A DNA stretch of 63,970 nt, filler included, from Licmophora abbreviata (lineage: Eukaryota): assembly GCA_900291995.1 (NCBI GenBank). It is 12 parts of 12 records of this genome, joined end to end, with 100 filler letters (N's around TTAATTAATTAA, not from the genome) between each part and the next. Parts side by side here need not be neighbours in the genome. Positions count along the whole stretch, not along the records: positions 36,229 to 41,589 come from OLMU01004030.1; 11 more parts are not named here. One strand, given 5' to 3'. The stretch's first letter is position 1. Every line of letters starts with the position of its first letter. Of the stretch, positions 36,428 to 44,272 are shown piece by piece. The translations under genes and the position numbers were made by a program. Below the pieces are notes generated by a model. The model saw nothing but the letters and a program-made list of their open reading frames with translations, was not told the origin of the DNA and did not search any database.

Positions 36428-37682
36428 CTATGAGGACGACTCGGCTTGCTTCCCACGGTACCTCTTGCATTCGTCTACGAGCCAGCCAACTGCTTCTTCC
36501 GGAGTTCCCTGCATGACACCATGTCCCAAGTTGAGCAAGTGCTTGTTTCCAGGTCCACCTGCCTTGTCAATACAGTCCCGTACTGCCTCTTCAATCTGTT
36601 CTTTGCTTCCAAACAAGATTGTAGGATCAATGTTACCAGAGATCGCTATGTCCGGTCCAAGAATCTGTCTCGCTTGCGCCATGTCGACAGCCCAATCCAC
36701 CGCAATCATGTCGCATCCCATGTCACGCTGGAGTTCCAAATATGCCGATCCTCCGTTGGCGAAGTAGATGACTGGCGTGTCGGGGTACTTGCTCTTGATG
36801 ATTTCAATTGCTTTCTGCGCAGCAGGCTTGGCAAAGTTTTCAAACTGCTTGGGGGACATTTGATGCGCCCAGCTCTCAAAGACTTGAATGACTTGCGCGC
36901 CGCACTCAATCTGGTGACAGGCATAGTTGCCAATCATGGTGGCAAGCTTGTCCAGAAACATGGACATACACTTGTTGTCGCCAGTGGCGTCAGTCATCAT
37001 GAGTTTCTTGGTTTTCAAACAGTGCTTGCTGCTCTTGCCCTCAATAGTGTAAGCCGCGAGGGTGAACGGGGCACCTACAAATCCAATCAAGGAGGTATCA
37101 GCCTCTTCCGCTTCCTTGGAAAGAGCAGAAAGTGTCTCACGAATAAATGGAACGGTCTCGTCAAAGTCAATGTTTTCCACATCCGGCATGTTCTCAACGT
37201 CTTGTTCCGTTTCCACCTTGGTACTGAATTACGGGCCCAGTCCCCTTGATGACATCAAAATCAATGCCAAGAGTCGGCAGAGGCGTCAGAATATCACTAA
37301 ACATGATAATTCCATCCATACCGTACGCACGGTGACACTGCAGCGACAACTCAATCGCCATGGACGGCGTTTCGCTGCGCTCCCGAAAGGGATAGACATC
37401 ACTGTACTTGCGAAAGTCTGCCATATAGCGTCCCGCCTGTCGCATCAACCAGACGGGCGTGCGTTCCGTCTGTTCGCCGCGAGCGGATCGTACCAAGATG
37501 TCGCGATCTGACGCTGCCGCAGCGGCTGTAGCAGCAGTTTCGGGCTCGGCGGCGGTCGACATGCGCCGAGCCGTCGATTGGCGGGAAACCAATCCAGCAC
37601 CGAACGCCTTGCTCTTGGACGGCACAAAGGCGTTCGCTGTCGTGACATACAGCACCGCCAGTAGGATCAGAGTGAATTTCAT
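36428..37682 (-). CDS. hemE: Plastid uroporphyrinogen decarboxylase; one-base frameshift at about 37227
   Basis: [21 protein letters not shown] presequence; [40 protein letters not shown] and NLGHG motifs. Confidence 0.93.
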
Positions 37683-38111
37683 GATGAAGCTGGTGATTCC
37701 AAAAGTCACAAGAGTCGCAGTACGGGCAAGAGCTCTTCGACAACACCACTAACAGGAGTATGATATGTATGATATAGACTGTGTTGCCTCCGAGTGGAAG
37801 AAAAGTGTGATGAAAATGGCATCCATTAAAAAATCAGGACTTCAACTTCCGGGTTTGGCGTGTCTTCAATTCTAGAAACGTACTGGTAGTTTGTGTACAA
37901 CACTCGTATGTGAAGTCTACGTGACTCTCAGTACAAAATGGGGCTAAGCGAGAGCCGCTCGCGACGCACCTATAGTTTCTTGTCACTTGTCACTTGGCAT
38001 CATGAACATCGACTCAACTTGACTGACTCGGTTTTGGATATACTGCGACCTTTCTTGCCATCGCTCTCGTACTTTGACTCCCGCTGGTGTCTCCTTGAAC
38101 TGCCCCCAGCT

Positions 38112-41026
38112 ATGGTATCGAGCTTCTCCTCAACGGGGTCGCGCTCTGGCGTCGCCAGAATAAAAATGCTCCTCTTTCTCGTTAGTTTGGAATCGTTCTG
38201 CCCTACATCATCATCACTACAGCAGCTGGCATCCTCACGCTCATTATGTCCCAGCGTGCCTCATCAGAGCTACACAGGCTTCATCCATGTACCTTCGAGA
38301 CAACCTCTTGATTTCGGCGCGAGCAGAAGAAGGAGGAGACGGCGGTGGCATCATGGCATTCCGCTGGCCGCGTCTGAAGATGATGGCGAAGAAAGCAGCA
38401 GTACTACAAGTAGTAGTACTGGAAGCAGTAGAGCTACTGTGGAGAATACGTACTCCGCCAAGTTTCTCGATGACAATGGACTCCAGCTCATGCTTGACTC
38501 GAATGGAAGAGTCACCGCTAGGCCACGAGCCAAAAAGGAAAAGAAACAAGAGAGGAAAGGAGAGAGTGGTAGCAGAACAAATGCCGATCTTGGGGGGGCG
38601 ACTGTCACACAAGACAAGCGTAATAGTACTGCTGCTTTGCAACTGCAAAATGAAACAGTGTCAAGAAAACCTCGTGAAGCAGTCACGACACCACCAGAAG
38701 CAACGTCAATACATCCGGTATCGTCTGCGCGTCCGATCAAGGAACTCCCGACGCCGAATCCGACCGCTTCCGAATTCAACGTGGTACTGACGCACTGTAC
38801 GGCTGATTTTGATTCATTGGCAAGCGCTGTGGGGCTGGCCAAGCTATGGCAACAAGAAGAGAATGACCGTCATGGCGGCGGTGATGATGAAGATAAGGAT
38901 ACTGTCGAGACTGGCACGGGGGGCCATCATCCGGACATAACTCCCACGTTTGTGGTGCTTCCACGAGGAGCCCATCCCGGTGTACAGCGTTTTCTAGCCC
39001 TGCACAAGTACTTGTTTCCCATCCGGTCACTTCGATCCTTACCAGATCTTTCTGGTTTGAATCGGCTTGGTCTCGTTGACGCCCAACGGCGTGATCGACT
39101 CGGTCCAGCGGAACATCTACTGGGCGAGGCCAAGGAAGTGGTCATTCTCGACCATCACGTGGATACGGAAAGTGACATTCCGGAAGCGACCGACTTTGTA
39201 GTCGATCAAGTTGGCAGTGTGTCTACGCTTGTAGTGGAGCGACTGCAGTCTGCAGAAATGGAAATCTCGGAGGCAGAGGCGACATTGCTAGCTCTCGGTA
39301 TCCATGCTGATACAGGGTCGTTGCGGTACGAAGCGACCACGTCTCGTGATGTGGCAGCTCTACTATGGGTAATGCAACAGGGCGCTAGCCAATCTGCTCT
39401 TGCGGAGCATGCTAAGTCTAGTCTGTCTCCAGAACAGCAAGGCGTCTTGACACAGGCTCTCATCAATACCAATTCGACCAAAGTGCACGGCGTGACGGTC
39501 TCGACCGTATTGCTAGGAGCCGATGGGTTTATCAATGGACTCGCATCCGTCACAACGGACGCGCTAGAACTGAGCACGTCGGATATCTTTCTCCTTTCGC
39601 TCGTGTACGAAGCGCGATCCGGCGGATCTTCCAAACGTCGTGGAGAAGGTGTCGTAAAGTCGCAATTGCTGAAGGAACGACGACAGCAGCACAGCGCACA
39701 GTCCGGTATTAACAGTACTACCATGGAAGAAGCGTGGATGGGTGGGAAGGAAGCACTACGGCGGCGAAGGCTACGAGCCGCATTTGATCGAAAAGACATG
39801 GACGGGTCGGGGTATCTGGAAAAGAATGAAATTGCCGCGGCTCTCGCCACGTCGGGAGTAGTTGCGTCCGAGGTACGGTCGAGCGACTGGACATGCTGCA
39901 TTGAGGTCATGCTTGCATATTGAATACGTGAACTCATGCCACTTGTTACTCTATCGTGAATTTCACACATTCACTTCTCCTTACCTCTCTCCAAGACAAC
40001 AATCAACTCGATTTTTGAAGGAATCGACTTGGACGGCAATGGCCAGATCGACTTTGAGGAGTTTGTGGCCTTTTCGCAAGACGCCGAAAAGCTCGCGGAC
40101 GACCACAAAAACTCGGGACGTCGCGCATCGACCATGATTATCATTGGACGCGTGCGTGCGGGAGTCAACACGAAGCAAGTGAAACTGAACAAGGTATTTG
40201 AAAAGTATGGTGGGGGTGGTCACCCGCAGGCAGCATCTGCCACAGTCCGACTGAGCGATGAGAGTGAAGCGGAAGGAATTCTGGAAGGACTTGTCGATGA
40301 GCTCATTGAGACTGGCCTGTTGGAACAGCCGAGGGTCGGAGATTTCATGACAGCACCCGTGCTGTCTGCGAGTCCCGATATGTCGGAAAAGCAAGTGGAA
40401 GATCTCTTCACACGGTACGAGATTCGGGCGTTGCCTGTGGTAGATGATGCCCTGAACATTATTGGGTTGGTAACATACAAGGAGGTTGCTGCCGCCAAGC
40501 AACGATTGTGGAACAAGGAGCAGAAACGATTACGGCAGGAGGCTGCTAGTAGTAAGAAGTCTGGGACAAAACGTGATGCGAGCAAGCAACGAGAAAGATC
40601 AGCTGACGCAGACATGATTGCTAGAAAACGAAAAAGTGGTAGCGCTCTAAAGGGTTGGATGAAGCAGCACGTTCAGACGGTGGAAGTCAGCATGACCATG
40701 GCCGAGGTGGAAGCACTCCTGTTAGAAACCGACGGTAAGTTCCCTATCCTAGTCGTGTAAACTGTGTTCTTGCTTTTTCAACGCTCTCACACAATGTGCC
40801 ATGATGTATTACTTTATGTGGTTGCACAGTCGGTTGTATCCCAGTCGTCGCCGATGGGACGAAACAGCTTGTAGGCATGGTAACGAGGACGGATCTGTTG
40901 CGCCAACACCGGTACTACTCCTCGCTGCACTACCACAACAAGGGGTTTTCCGATTCCATTGCAGCAAGACAACCCATCATTGAACTACGGAAGAAGCTAA
41001 AGCAATTTGATATTGAAGACGAGTGA
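38112..41026 (+). CDS. DHH/DHHA1 phosphoesterase with inserted EF-hand pair and C-terminal CBS pair (introns 39873-39995, 40735-40829)
   Basis: DHH motifs THCTADFDSLAS, LVDAQ, ILDHH, GIHADTG and GGGGHPQAASA. EF loops DRKDMDGSGYLE and DLDGNGQIDFEEF. CBS motifs VGDFMT..LPVVD..IIGLVT and IPVV..LVGMVTRTDLL. The start codon is uncertain (38112 or 38166). Confidence 0.88.
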
Positions 41027-41506: not shown

Positions 41507-44272
41507 ATGAAAAAAGTGACGAGCAAGGATGAGCGTGACAATGAGCACGACTACGGCGCTGCTGCTGCCGTGACAGACACGACTGCAGANNNNNNNNNNN
41601 NNNNNNNNNNNNNNNNNNNNNNNNNNNNNNNNNTTAATTAATTAANNNNNNNNNNNNNNNNNNNNNNNNNNNNNNNNNNNNNNNNNNNNAACGCAGCATC
41701 GAGCAAGCCCCAAACTGTGGTTTCGGAATTCGGCAAGACTGCGGGGCAATCAAACACGTTCTCCTTGTCCTTGTCCTTGCCGCAAGAAGAAAGACCTTCT
41801 GGGGAGAGGGAACAACGTACTACTGCCTCTAGCAGTGGCAGTCCTCTAAAAAAGAAACCACCGTCGGCACAAGATCGACCTGCTGTCGTTGTACCGGGCA
41901 AGGCAAAGAATAAGACGACCGCACGGCCTATCATTAAGAGGACGAGTCAAGCACGAACTGCACTGTCTAGCGTGTCGAGAACGAAGTCTTCGAGCTCGCA
42001 GGAGAAAGATGATGGGAATGACGAGGATGAATTCGTCGTGGTGAGCAACACGATGCCCTCGTCGCTCTTTGCCATCAACGACCCTCCTTCTTCTACTGCT
42101 ACGCGTCCTCCTAAAAGTGATGCTTCATCGCAACCATCACTGCCAACACCTGCGTCCTCCGTATCACTCATGACAGATCACGACATGGAGATATGTCAGC
42201 GTTTGGACGAAGAGTACGAGCGCGCCTTGGAGGAACGCGAGATTGGCTACAATGCCCGCTACGACAGTGTGCGACAATCGGCAGCCGGGTCCATCATTTT
42301 CATGGTTCTCTACATGACACTTGGAACTGTCTTCTTTACGCAAGCGGCAGGGTGGCAAGTTCACGAAGCTCTCTTCTTTTCCATTTATACCATTACGACA
42401 GTTGGCTATGGGAGCGATAAGAACATTCCGAGGACTCCGGGATTTCAGATTTACACCATTTTTTATATCTTTGTGGGCATTGCCACCTTGACCATCATGG
42501 TGGCACAAGTCTATCAGTGTATTGCCTTGGAAGCGTCGCGGGCGCAGCATAGAAGAGATCGGGCGGAACTGGCGGGGCGAAGTCAGGATCTGTGGAATGA
42601 TAACGAGGACAATCGGTTTCGTCGAGATGGAATTATGAAGACGAGTAGCATACATGACAACGATCATCGTTCATCCGAGGGGTCGCCCGGGCTACGACGC
42701 AAGTCGTCGACGCGGGAGCACACGAGGATGGAGTGGGGGTGGGGTAACAGCAACAACAACAGCGGCGGCGGCAGCAATGACAATATCACCATGGGAAGAG
42801 GAGAAACTTGGGTCGACAAGTGCATACGGATATATGAGCGCACCAAACACTTTCTGCGCGACACCCAGTCAGGACGAGCCGTATCATCGCTCTTGCCCTT
42901 TGGCGGACTCATTTTGATTGGTGCCATTGTCGTTGGACCGATCGAAGGATGGACGGTTGTAGAGTCCCTGTACTTTGCATGCGTGTCATTGACCACCGTC
43001 GGGTACGGTGATACGATTCCAACGCGGCTCGCCAGTATATGGTTCTGCATCTTTTGGTTGCCCTTTAGCGTCGGCTTTATGAGTTTGTACTTGACCAACG
43101 TGGCAAGATTCTATATTCGACTGAGCGACACGAATATTCAGAGGCTGGAACGACAAATGCGAAGGCGACTGCAGACGGCGAAGCAAGAAGCTGAAGTAGA
43201 ACGTGCTGCGGTCTTGCGACGGGCCTATCGTCTCCAACAACACGACGGAGGGCCGGGGGCAGCTGCCTCTGAAGTTGCCATGGGGGCTGCTACGGATGAC
43301 GACGACGATGACGGCGAATCGTTGGGCTCATCCGAGGCGGAAGATTTCTCTCCTAGACAAACGGGAGGCGGTGCGAGAGCGTCGAGATCAAAGTCGCTGG
43401 CAAATCGAGTGGCCAGCCAGTTCGGGTTTGAACCACTCGCTGCACAGGACGTGAATGGGCTTGATACGAGTGAACAAGACTTGCCGATGGACTCGCCTGA
43501 AGCGTTGGAGGTGCTGGGGCAGCAGCGGCGAGAGCGTATTCTCCAGGAGAGCAACTTTGCTTTCGATGGTAACCCTCGTGTTGGCGACAGTTTGACCACG
43601 ATGGGTGATATACTGCGAACGGTCCGGGAACATGTAGTGACAGAAAGTGACGTGGGACAGTCCTACGGAGACACGAATCATTCAATCCGTGGTCGCCCTG
43701 AGAGTCAGTTCATGTCGATCAAGTCCAATGATTTGATGTCTCGTGCAACTGTGCGGCAGCGGCCTTTAGCGAAAAGCGAAAAGAAACCTTCATTTGCCCT
43801 GCGCGTACTGGTGCAAGAACGATTTGCCGAGATCATCGCGACAGAAGTGGCCGGTTTCCAGTCGAACCTTGAGCTAGAAGAAAACACTCTTTCGGTAACG
43901 ATTGATACGTTGCGTCGGACTGCCGACAAGTGGCTCGTGCCGCGACGTGCACAGAAAGCCTTCCGCGCAGTCGCCTTTGAAGCAATATACTTTGTCGGAG
44001 AGCATAGCTTGATTACTCGAGGAGCGAACGCACTATACGATCTTGGACCCTTCGAGTTTCATGGTCTGTTTGCCCCACTGCTTGCGGCGCTGGGTGATGC
44101 TGAAACTATGGAAGGTTGGCTGGCGAGTACAAACGTCCTGGCGGACGTGGACCTCCAAAGGTACGGTGAGAGCAGAAAGCGATCGGAAACCAGAAAGAAG
44201 GCCGCGGCTGCTCGTGTACAAAGGAGCGGGTCGGATAGTAGTGCCCCTGACGCCCAGGGGTCGATTACGTGA
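41507..44272 (+). CDS. Two-pore-domain potassium channel (TPK/K2P-like); N-terminus interrupted by gap
   Basis: Two pore loops, TITTVGYG and SLTTVGYGD, each flanked by TM helices. The putative start MKKVTSKD at 41507, before the gap, is inferred. Confidence 0.88.
41590..41689. other. Assembly spacer
   Basis: N-run with TTAATTAATTAA. Confidence 0.98.

Follow-up and report, generated by a model that had tools for sequence, protein, structure and literature searches.

A diatom DHH-DHHA1-CBS phosphoesterase with a predicted Ca2+-binding EF-hand pair inserted in its DHHA1 domain

Positions 38112-41026 of the window, on the plus strand, hold a nuclear, diatom-type gene of three exons whose 898-residue product carries an EF-hand pair inside the substrate-binding half of a DHH-DHHA1 phosphoesterase (the window is the whole 63,970-nucleotide stretch of Licmophora abbreviata DNA that was analysed). 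The domain order is a signal-peptide-like N-terminus, DHH, DHHA1 with the EF-hand insert, a CBS pair and a conserved tail. This design is uncharacterised, and it is not a one-off, since it recurs across diatoms and in Triparma. We give about an even chance to the reading that the protein is a plastid NrnA-like phosphoesterase acting on nanoRNA or pAp and tuned by stromal Ca2+ and adenylates. Such an enzyme could put the degradation of RNA fragments or signal nucleotides under the influence of chloroplast Ca2+ signals.

Gene model, catalytic motifs and targeting

The spliced coding sequence of 2697 nt aligns without gaps, at both splice junctions and at the C-terminus, to all ten named full-length diatom homologues (Table 1). 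Intron 1 contains an in-frame TGA at 39921-39923, so a transcript that kept it would encode a truncated protein. Alternative starts are offered by two further in-frame ATGs, at 37938 and 38166. The first-pass annotation had listed DHH motifs, a DHHA1 domain, an EF-hand pair and a CBS pair with no nucleotidyltransferase domain after them, and the gene model, Pfam and alignments bear out the whole list. A Pfam scan found no PolyA_pol domain in any exon. Loss of a nucleotidyltransferase domain in the assembly gap at 41590-41689 can be rejected, because the stop codon and the conserved tail, which is common to the algal relatives, come 560 nt before that gap.

Table 1. Parts of the Licmophora gene and its product, in window coordinates
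Feature	Position	Strand	Remarks
Exon 1	38112..39872	+	Presequence, N-terminal hairpin motif, DHH domain, first half of DHHA1, linker, EF-hand 1; open frame and GT donor at 39873
Signal-peptide-like N-terminus (aa 1-28), Phe at +1	38112..38195	+	Hydrophobic region plus [ASGC]F test passed; homologue N-termini compared
Conserved short motif YSA+F..DNG....D..GRV.A	38451..38519	+	Upstream of DHH domain; conserved in diatom alignment
DHH catalytic domain	38781..39302	+	Pfam PF01368, 1.1e-9, 39 bits (cut-off 28.1)
DHH motif I, DFD	38802-38819	+	Located on sequence
DHH motif II, D	39072-39086	+	Located on sequence
DHH motif III, DHH	39147-39161	+	Located on sequence
DHH motif IV, D of HADTG	39303-39317	+	Follows DHH domain
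132-aa insert in DHHA1 beta-hairpin (aa 502-633)	39615..40133	+	Interrupted by intron 1; basic linker, then EF-hand pair
EF-hand 1 Ca2+-binding loop (12 residues; predicted)	39795..39830	+	Ligand positions conserved in 139 relatives
Intron 1	39873..39995	+	GT39873..AG39995, 123 nt, phase 0; between EF-hand 1 and EF-hand 2
Exon 2	39996..40734	+	EF-hand 2, second half of DHHA1 with GR and GGGGH motifs, CBS1, charged helical linker, start of CBS2
EF-hand 2 Ca2+-binding loop (12 residues; predicted)	40026..40061	+	Pfam EF-hand_1, 27.9 bits (cut-off 25.4), exon 2
DHHA1 substrate-side motifs	40137..40223	+	Strand with invariant Arg, 40137-40154; GGGGH, 40209-40223
CBS domain 1	40335..40496	+	Pfam PF00571, 5e-12, 46.4 bits (cut-off 24)
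CBS domain 2	40653..40903	+	Split by intron 2; Pfam CBS on exon 3, 2.2e-5, 25.1 bits (cut-off 24); alignment
Intron 2	40735..40829	+	GT40735..AG40829, 95 nt, phase 1
Exon 3	40830..41026	+	End of CBS2, conserved C-terminal tail, stop codon 41024-41026

The catalytic equipment is complete. Every DHH motif that had been claimed as intact is present (DFD, D, DHH, the D of HADTG, and GGGGH), and an alignment of 66 sequences from diatoms, other algae and bacterial relatives shows no variation at D, D, D, DHH, D, R and GH. The part of DHHA1 on exon 2 matches PF02272 at 28.0 bits (cut-off 25.9; 3.2e-6). Catalysis would run through the intact DHH metal site together with the Arg and GGGGH of the DHHA1 substrate site. 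The second CBS domain carries a G-h-h-T-R-T-D motif, presumably of the ribose-phosphate type, and the C-terminal CBS pair may add control by adenosine ligands.

The presequence is rich in Ser and Arg, as proposed earlier, with 16.7% Ser and 9.5% Arg over the first 221 residues. Its first 28 residues followed by Phe are what we take, from the usual motif rule, to be the bipartite presequence signature of diatom plastid proteins. A crude test for a hydrophobic region followed by [ASGC]-F is passed by the Licmophora protein and by 55 of 101 full-length-like EF-bearing homologues, against 71 of 2020 shuffled N-termini (3.5%) and 2 of 101 internal stretches. The other 46 homologues fail it, several of them resembling truncated gene models, and the h-region of the Licmophora protein is short, at about 8 residues. 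The signature, which is not itself a localisation, supports the plastid location suggested at first pass, and the protein is probably plastid-targeted. Between the presequence and the DHH domain, the conserved short motif is predicted to form a beta-hairpin (pLDDT 81-90 at the matching residues 61-90 in the AlphaFold model of P0008, a 71%-identical homologue; mean pLDDT 80.6).

An EF-hand pair within DHHA1

The insert lies between two DHHA1 strands. Its end stands about 25 residues ahead of GGGGH, a distance that makes the earlier placement 'just before GGGGH' only roughly right. The pair had also been called 'spliced-in', which is apt for a domain insertion and wrong for the exon structure: the sole nearby intron splits the pair and flanks it on neither side. 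Each exon alone gives a weak EF score, that of exon 1 falling below the cut-off, because intron 1 divides the pair; on the intact pair of P0008, the closest full-length homologue, EF-hand_7 scores 55.4 bits (cut-off 30), and a second EF-hand_7 score is 59.7 bits. A PDB profile search with the full alignment matched calmodulin and troponin C lobes at 1e-16 to 1e-18. Two canonical loops had been placed at about 39784-40075, and both are found inside that span; in each loop, positions 1 and 3 are D, position 5 is S or N, position 6 is G and position 12 is E.

These features are retained in most insert-bearing relatives. Two PROSITE-like loops are kept in 139 of 151 insert-bearing relatives, 36 residues apart in 134; D occupies position 1 of both loops in all 139, and E occupies position 12 of one loop in 137 of them and of the other in all 139. 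The spacing from DHH to GGGH is about 313 aa in the Licmophora protein and 306-372 aa in EF-bearing relatives, compared with about 185 aa in EF-less algal relatives and about 179 aa in bacterial ones. The EF region is not an unspliced intron or an annotation artefact, as it is in frame in both exons, is kept in those 139 relatives, and is present as PF13499 in all ten listed transcriptome-derived homologues (P0013, P0014, P0017, P0026, P0039, P0051, P0081, P0088, P0282 and P0305). Clean removal of the pair by exon skipping is likewise rejected, as no introns flank it.

The way in which the insert is joined to the core suggests how it might act. In the P0008 model, residues 445-528 have pLDDT 83-96 and helix 507-528 runs into strand 533-541; the exit helix of EF-hand 2 is thus modelled as passing almost directly into the strand that bears the invariant Arg, some 20 residues ahead of GGGGH. 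Because this helix abuts that strand, Ca2+ binding could shift the substrate-binding domain: a stromal Ca2+ rise would load the EF-hands, move the domain and tune activity, whether up or down. A sensor placed within a substrate-binding domain would be an unusual type of domain insertion. Direct inhibition of Mn2+/Mg2+ phosphoesterases by Ca2+ is also possible, so a Ca2+ effect in vitro need not come from the EF loops.

The enzyme could instead be constitutive, with the EF-hand pair serving not as an allosteric switch but as a structural Ca2+ site, a protein docking surface or a tolerated insertion. In other lineages the same DHHA1 loop bears unrelated, low-complexity inserts without EF-hands, giving DHH-to-GGGH spacings of 332 (P0151), 253 (P0169), 257 (P0171) and 293 (P0186); the site therefore tolerates insertions, and an insert there need not be regulatory. 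The basic linker on the N-terminal side of the insert is, moreover, probably disordered (residues 410-441 of the P0008 model have pLDDT values under 50). On the C-terminal side, however, a continuous helix and a link of only about 4 residues connect the insert to the core, and 139 relatives on both sides of the split between diatoms and bolidophytes have kept the Ca2+-ligand positions almost perfectly, which points to selection for Ca2+ binding itself. We consider a constitutive enzyme unlikely, and prefer the reading in which the pair tunes the phosphoesterase.

Distribution and bacterial descent

EF-hand families occur in 112 of 120 relatives among the matches listed, and the named carriers are diatoms and Triparma, a bolidophyte and thus of the sister group of diatoms. 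Among relatives without EF-hands, those of brown algae and Tribonema are the nearest. The EF-hand pair was not found in the brown-algal, Tribonema and bacterial relatives compared, and was absent from all seven bacterial fusion proteins scanned. In the tree, all 14 EF-bearing rows form one clade (SH-aLRT 100) whose first branch is a Triparma-like sequence, which fits a single gain of the pair. This clade stands among EF-less ochrophyte rows, in a polytomy with two EF-less groups, one of them containing the brown algae and Tribonema; the tree came from a 'quick' search, and its polytomies deserve less trust. The pair would have entered the DHHA1 beta-hairpin in the ancestor that diatoms share with bolidophytes. 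Of the gain of Ca2+ sensing proposed at first pass, the gain of the EF-hand pair, with its conserved ligand positions, is borne out by this distribution, and the sensing itself is predicted. Public records name the orthologues 'hypothetical protein', 'phosphoesterase RecJ domain protein' or 'nanoRNase/pAp phosphatase', and the Triparma sequence sits in a UniRef 'Calmodulin' entry, so the architecture is effectively unannotated.

The bacterial derivation claimed for the enzyme is supported. The best NCBIfam match, to NF041569 (A-adding tRNA nucleotidyltransferase), falls in the N-terminal part of that model, at positions 44-230 and 260-361 of its 880, and scores 93.1 and 36.0 bits, far below the cut-off of 1440. 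Relatives are encoded at 491 prokaryotic loci, and 74 of the best 80 belong to named cyanobacteria. These relatives are the 'Nrn-CBS' N-terminal modules of A-adding tRNA nucleotidyltransferases of about 900 aa; a complete Anabaena ORF reads DHH-DHHA1-CBS2-PolyA_pol, and all sampled complete cyanobacterial relatives are PolyA_pol fusions of this size. In the tree, the eukaryotic clade shares a polytomy with cyanobacteria, a Schekmanbacteria pair and other bacteria, so a firm nesting of the eukaryotes inside cyanobacteria is not borne out. The algal enzyme would descend from the 'Nrn-CBS' module of bacterial, above all cyanobacterial, A-adding enzymes, and have become free-standing in algae.

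This ancestry raises the possibility that the protein kept a role from the fusion, as an accessory factor of plastid tRNA 3'-end metabolism that works alongside a separate plastid nucleotidyltransferase and trims or clears 3'-end nucleotides or products. The closest curated model is that of the A-adding enzyme, the sampled complete cyanobacterial relatives are all fused to the transferase, and the algal C-terminal tail continues the linker that in bacteria leads into it. Against this, passages in two papers describe the Nrn and CBS domains as dispensable for transferase activity (PMC8208693, PMC13514080), where the 'Nrn-CBS' module is noted for the T. maritima enzyme. The module is also without known function in bacteria. 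We regard an accessory role in tRNA metabolism as distinctly improbable. Under the preferred reading of an NrnA-like phosphoesterase, the job of the protein would be the hydrolysis of very short 5'-phosphorylated nucleotides in the plastid, that is, RNA fragments of 2-5 nt, pAp, or both.

Class of the core and comparison with known systems

By sequence and by modelled fold, the core groups with the NrnA, CnpB, GdpP and DhhP enzymes and not with the pyrophosphatases. The PDB profile search was rerun with the DHH core alone, the full alignment being swamped by calmodulin-type matches. The best matches of the core are of NrnA/CnpB type (4ls9 at 1.8e-6; 5jju and 5cet at 1.7e-5), followed by cyclic-dinucleotide phosphodiesterases (5xsi and 5xt3 at 8e-4), with a pyrophosphatase at 0.24. 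A Foldseek comparison with the P0008 model retrieved GdpP, DhhP, TmPDE and NrnA structures at E values of 6e-17 to 6e-13 and TM(target) of 0.53-0.79. The alignments span about 470-485 columns on targets of about 320-330 residues, and therefore contain one large insert. With family II pyrophosphatases the alignment covers only some 280 columns, at TM of about 0.5. A family II pyrophosphatase or RecJ identity is rejected, given DHHA1 in place of DHHA2, the poor scores, and the lack of the RecJ OB or extra domains. Family membership does not specify the substrate: the NrnA equivalog model NF053633 gives 33.6 bits against a cut-off of 350.

The substrate might instead be a nucleotide second messenger, for example c-di-AMP (by way of pApA) or some other dinucleotide, cyclic or linear; Ca2+ would then gate the turnover of a signal and not the clearance of RNA fragments. 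Borrelia DhhP, TmPDE and the GdpP catalytic domain with c-di-GMP or pApA are among the best structural matches; 5xsi and 5xt3 are described as 'phosphodiesterase acting on cyclic dinucleotides', and cyanobacterial ancestry would presumably be compatible with a c-di-AMP world. NrnA-type sequences nevertheless score above the phosphodiesterases, and in the searchable full-text literature, judged by title and abstract, no diatom diadenylate cyclase is documented. We know of no cyclic-dinucleotide system in the host lineage. Stand-alone DHH/DHHA1 enzymes commonly accept both kinds of substrate, so the fold does not separate nanoRNA from dinucleotides. A dedicated second-messenger phosphodiesterase seems to us very improbable, and an NrnA-like activity on nanoRNA or pAp remains our preferred reading.

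In PMC11663583, large Ca2+ rises are described in the stroma of P. tricornutum under high light and H2O2, and few effectors are known for diatom stromal Ca2+ signals. If our reading is correct, the Licmophora protein would be a soluble enzymatic effector of stromal Ca2+ that acts on nucleotides. A 2022 review (PMC10989914) states that cyanobacteria are without Orn, NrnA and NrnB and that their oligoribonuclease 'remains to be identified'; set against that text, the EF-less family becomes a concrete candidate for this cyanobacterial enzyme and, by extension, for its plastid counterpart. A bolder version is a long shot: the free-standing Nrn-CBS protein would be the missing oligoribonuclease/pAp phosphatase of ochrophyte plastids, its fused ancestor would do the same in cyanobacteria, and the EF-hand insert would make it an effector of stromal Ca2+ under high light or H2O2, setting nanoRNA and pAp levels and feeding a retrograde or transcription-priming signal. 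Diatoms would then have their own equivalent of the plant SAL1-PAP pathway, assembled from unrelated components. A search of the full-text literature, with subscription journals outside its coverage, found no paper on a DHH/DHHA1 design with EF-hands, and the A-adding fusion is mentioned there only in passing.

Compared with known systems, the protein combines familiar elements in a new order. The stand-alone nanoRNases/pAp phosphatases NrnA and CnpB (Rv2837c) share its DHH and DHHA1 core, with DxD, D, DHH, D and GGGH (TM(target) 0.61-0.72). The Licmophora protein, eukaryotic and nuclear-encoded, adds the 132-aa EF insert, the C-terminal CBS pair, the conserved tail and a long N-terminal or targeting region. 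The bacterial A-adding or CCA-adding 'Nrn-CBS' modules are its closest sequence relatives, with the same DHH-DHHA1-CBS-CBS order and common motif neighbourhoods, and are 35-43% identical to a diatom homologue across its residues 134-655, but those scanned lack the EF-hand pair, whereas the diatom protein lacks PolyA_pol. CBS-PPases also unite a DHH-family hydrolase with a CBS pair, and their regulation by adenine nucleotides is a textbook precedent. Matches to the PRK14869 CBS-PPase models are weak, at no more than 37.7 bits against cut-offs of 335-753 (37.7 against 522 for the best), and in those enzymes the CBS pair interrupts the DHH domain and DHHA2 is the second domain, whereas the Licmophora protein has its CBS pair at the C-terminus and a DHHA1 domain with GGGGH. 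GdpP, DhhP and TmPDE, at E values of 6e-17 to 2e-15, are the top Foldseek matches, but the Licmophora protein has no PAS/GGDEF or membrane part and is closer in sequence to NrnA. Among EF-bearing plastid proteins, plant CRSH is an analogue. Nearer to hand, diatom KEA3 and DSP are likewise lineage-specific fusions of an EF-hand pair to a plastid protein, proposed in PMC11663583 as readers of stromal Ca2+. The families are unrelated, and the pair is terminal in KEA3 and DSP, whereas in the Licmophora protein it lies inside the catalytic-side domain of a nucleotide hydrolase.

Gene structure and neighbourhood

The locus is a eukaryotic gene with two introns. Its spliced reading frame of 2697 nt encodes 898 aa. 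All 10 named diatom homologues of full length match it at both splice junctions and at the C-terminus with no gap in the alignment, so the gene model is backed by homology as well as by splice signals. Read unspliced, the exon 1 frame is an ORF (37938-39923) that terminates within intron 1. Other in-frame ATGs are at 37938 and 38166; the predicted protein favours 38112, because a basic n-region and a hydrophobic stretch then fall at the extreme N-terminus.

Features of the DHH gene and its surroundings
Feature	Position	Strand	Remark
URO-D (uroporphyrinogen decarboxylase) gene	36428-37709	-	overlapping ORFs 37194-37709 and 36428-37216
DHH gene	38112-41026	+	stop codon 41024-41026
Exon 1	38112-39872	+	ends at GT donor
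YSA+F..DNG....D..GRV.A motif	38451-38519		upstream of DHH domain
EF loop 1	39795-39830	+	12 residues
Intron 1	39873-39995	+	GT..AG, 123 nt, in-frame TGA inside
Exon 2	39996-40734	+	ends in phase 1
EF loop 2	40026-40061	+	12 residues
Intron 2	40735-40829	+	GT..AG
Exon 3	40830-41026	+	
Assembly gap	41590-41689		100-nt N run
String TTAATTAATTAA	41634-41645		12 nt, middle of gap
Channel-like ORF	41717-44272	+	5' end reaches into gap

Pfam finds DHH in exon 1 (1.1e-9), EF-hand (1.4e-6), DHHA1 (3.2e-6) and CBS (5e-12) in exon 2, and the tail end of a second CBS domain in exon 3 (2.2e-5), which bears out the CBS pair that the first-pass annotation had placed after DHHA1. The DHH motifs it had called intact are present as a complete set with GGGGH, and no nucleotidyltransferase domain follows the CBS pair, as it had also stated, the stop codon lying 560 nt before the assembly gap. 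The DHH motifs, GGGGH and an Arg in a DHHA1 strand, which this protein has, are invariant across a 66-sequence alignment from diatoms to bacteria. The CBS2 motif G-h-h-T-R-T-D, presumably a mark of adenosine-ligand sites, is kept in every row of the diatom alignment. Diatom homologues also keep the YSA+F motif (residues 61-90 of P0008, a close full-length homologue), which forms a confident beta-hairpin in the structure model and was not visible in the brown-algal relatives inspected.

The URO-D and DHH genes are arranged head-to-head, their start codons ~400 bp apart. The URO-D ORF is split, which implies an intron or frame change near 37200, and the encoded protein starts with a clear signal peptide and then Ala-Phe, a plastid-type signature. 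The N run with this string in it resembles an artificial linker for joining scaffolds, with stop codons in every frame, so the two flanks may not be true neighbours. Beyond it, the long ORF has two Ion_trans_2 pore domains and two TVGYG-type filters and is predicted to encode a two-pore K+-channel-like protein.

The EF-hand insert

The two canonical EF loops that had been recognised within DHHA1 sit in an insert of 132 aa (aa 502-633) that separates two strands of DHHA1, and positions 1, 3, 5, 6 and 12 of both are D, D, S/N, G and E. Because intron 1 separates EF-hand 1 from EF-hand 2, exon 1 alone falls under the Pfam EF-hand cut-off; the unbroken pair of P0008 (71% identical) reaches 55.4 bits (cut-off 30). 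The DHH-to-GGGH spacing of ~313 aa falls in the 306-372 aa range of EF-bearing relatives; in relatives without EF-hands it is ~185 aa (algal) or ~179 aa (bacterial).

We surveyed every fetched protein that has DHH and GGGH at least 280 aa apart (n=151), using a PROSITE-like pattern of our own. Two loops fit it in 139, with a loop-to-loop distance of 36 residues in 134 of these; in all 139, both loops have D at position 1, and position 12 is E in 137 for one loop and in all 139 for the other. One loop was seen in eight further proteins and none in four, three of the latter being EF-less with other inserts. The pair is present in 10 of 10 transcriptome-derived homologues among the matches listed, so in other species the EF region is in the mRNA. 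Five eukaryote-type relatives (P0151, P0169, P0171, P0173, P0186) carry low-complexity, EF-less inserts of varied length in the same DHHA1 loop. This loop looks like an insertion hot-spot, and since other lineages hold unrelated inserts there, an insert at this site need not be regulatory.

Distribution and origin

DHH+EF-hand+CBS, for which the first-pass annotation had suggested an architecture search, is not a one-off: a homology search with the DHH-to-EF1 part retrieved 429 relatives, and 112 of the 120 listed matches (55-73% identity) have EF-hand families. The other eight (P0004, P0005, P0006, P0009, P0010, P0053, P0082, P0092), of 453-565 aa with DHH as sole Pfam family, are possibly truncated gene models from eukaryotic contigs. 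Named EF-bearing diatoms are Odontella, Seminavis, Epithemia, Mayamaea, Cylindrotheca, Dactyliosolen and one with a truncated label beginning 'Pseudo'; the bolidophytes, sister group of diatoms, are represented by Triparma verrucosa and T. strigata. The 693-aa DHH-EF-CBS proteins of these two species (P0301, P0302) bear the automatic UniRef name 'Calmodulin', a misleading one derived from the small insert. Across diatoms and bolidophytes the protein is conserved; public records leave it poorly named and its function uncharacterised.

The nearest relatives without EF-hands, from brown algae (Ectocarpus, Pylaiella, Scytosiphon, Ascophyllum, Discosporangium and an 'Undpi1'-labelled protein) and the xanthophyte Tribonema, have a signal-peptide-like start and C-terminal tail in common with the EF-bearing proteins. 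No EF family was found at E <= 1e-4 in the 46 lower-ranked representatives scanned, seven of which are bacterial fusions with PolyA_pol.

In a quick-search maximum-likelihood tree (88 rows, 481 columns, insert columns dropped, SH-aLRT as sole support measure), all 14 EF-bearing rows form one clade (support 100) in which the Triparma-like P0130 branches first. This clade and two EF-less groups, one of which includes brown algae and Tribonema, are a polytomy inside a 27-row clade (99), a pattern that fits one EF gain before the diatom-bolidophyte split. The 48 eukaryote-type rows are a single clade (99) opposite the bacterial rows, themselves a polytomy of cyanobacteria (28 rows, 93), a Schekmanbacteria pair and ten others; the eukaryote-type clade is not nested in cyanobacteria in this tree.

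Among curated models, the top match is to the N-terminal part of A-adding tRNA nucleotidyltransferase, at a score far under cut-off, and the NrnA model also scores under its cut-off. A one-genome-per-species scan with two seed patterns from the alignment, which may favour similar motifs, confirmed 491 prokaryotic relatives. The best 80 of the 491 (35-43% identity over residues 134-655 of a diatom homologue) comprise 74 cyanobacterial names, one Chloroflexaceae bin, one Schekmanbacteria and four 'uncultured bacterium'. Their ORFs are ~900 aa long; in a complete Anabaena ORF, DHH and DHHA1 are followed by two CBS domains and PolyA_pol. These relatives and the A-adding-model match back the bacterial derivation proposed earlier, and there is good support for an origin in bacteria; the simplest reading, though not a proven one, is that it was cyanobacterial and endosymbiotic. 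The bacterial module, termed 'Nrn and CBS domains', is dispensable for the transferase reaction and is assigned no function in the available portions of PMC8208693 and PMC13514080; a 2025 paper lists the fusion only among several DHH-DHHA1 architectures (PMC12709177).

Location, possible control and enzyme class

Diatom plastid targeting follows a rule of a hydrophobic region and then [ASGC]-F. By a crude test of this rule the N-terminus passes, as do 55 of 101 EF-bearing homologues with a Met start and at least 100 aa ahead of the DHH domain (46 fail), against 71 of 2020 shuffled N-termini and 2 of 101 internal stretches. The plastid location suggested earlier stays probable.

For control by adenylates, the precedent among DHH enzymes is the CBS-pyrophosphatases. 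In the P0008 AlphaFold model (mean pLDDT 80.6, pTM 0.64), the insert is disordered on its N-terminal side (residues 410-441, pLDDT < 50) and the EF pair confident (445-528, pLDDT 83-96); the last EF helix (507-528) leads after ~4 residues into strand 533-541, which bears the invariant Arg, upstream of GGGGH. A Ca2+-driven change in the angle of this helix could act directly on the substrate-binding domain. Of the gained Ca2+ sensing proposed earlier, the gain of an EF pair is supported by the single-gain pattern and the conserved ligand positions, and the gating step is one that we infer from the model. Experiments have recorded large Ca2+ rises of the stroma itself in P. tricornutum under high light and H2O2, and EF pairs also occur in diatom KEA3 and DSP proteins (PMC11663583); that paper makes no mention of a DHH protein ('dhh' occurs 0 times). 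As a candidate effector of plastid Ca2+ signals, the protein described here is attractive.

We favour nanoRNA or pAp as the putative substrate because the sequence is nearest to NrnA, because the searchable literature documents no such system based on cyclic dinucleotides for diatoms, and because cyanobacteria lack every known oligoribonuclease, according to a review (PMC10989914). The best solved-structure sequence matches of the DHH core are NrnA/CnpB-type (4ls9, 1.8e-6; 9wbu, 1.5e-5; 5cet and 5jju, 1.7e-5), followed by cyclic-dinucleotide phosphodiesterases (8e-4) and TmPDE; a pyrophosphatase scores 0.24. The P0008 model matches GdpP, DhhP, TmPDE and NrnA structures (E 6e-17 to 6e-13) over ~470-485 columns for targets of ~320-330 residues, the excess being the insert, whereas family II pyrophosphatases align over only ~280 columns. 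Sequence and fold matches therefore group the core with hydrolases of nanoRNA, pAp, pApA and cyclic dinucleotides, and the protein is a new variant within a known enzyme class.
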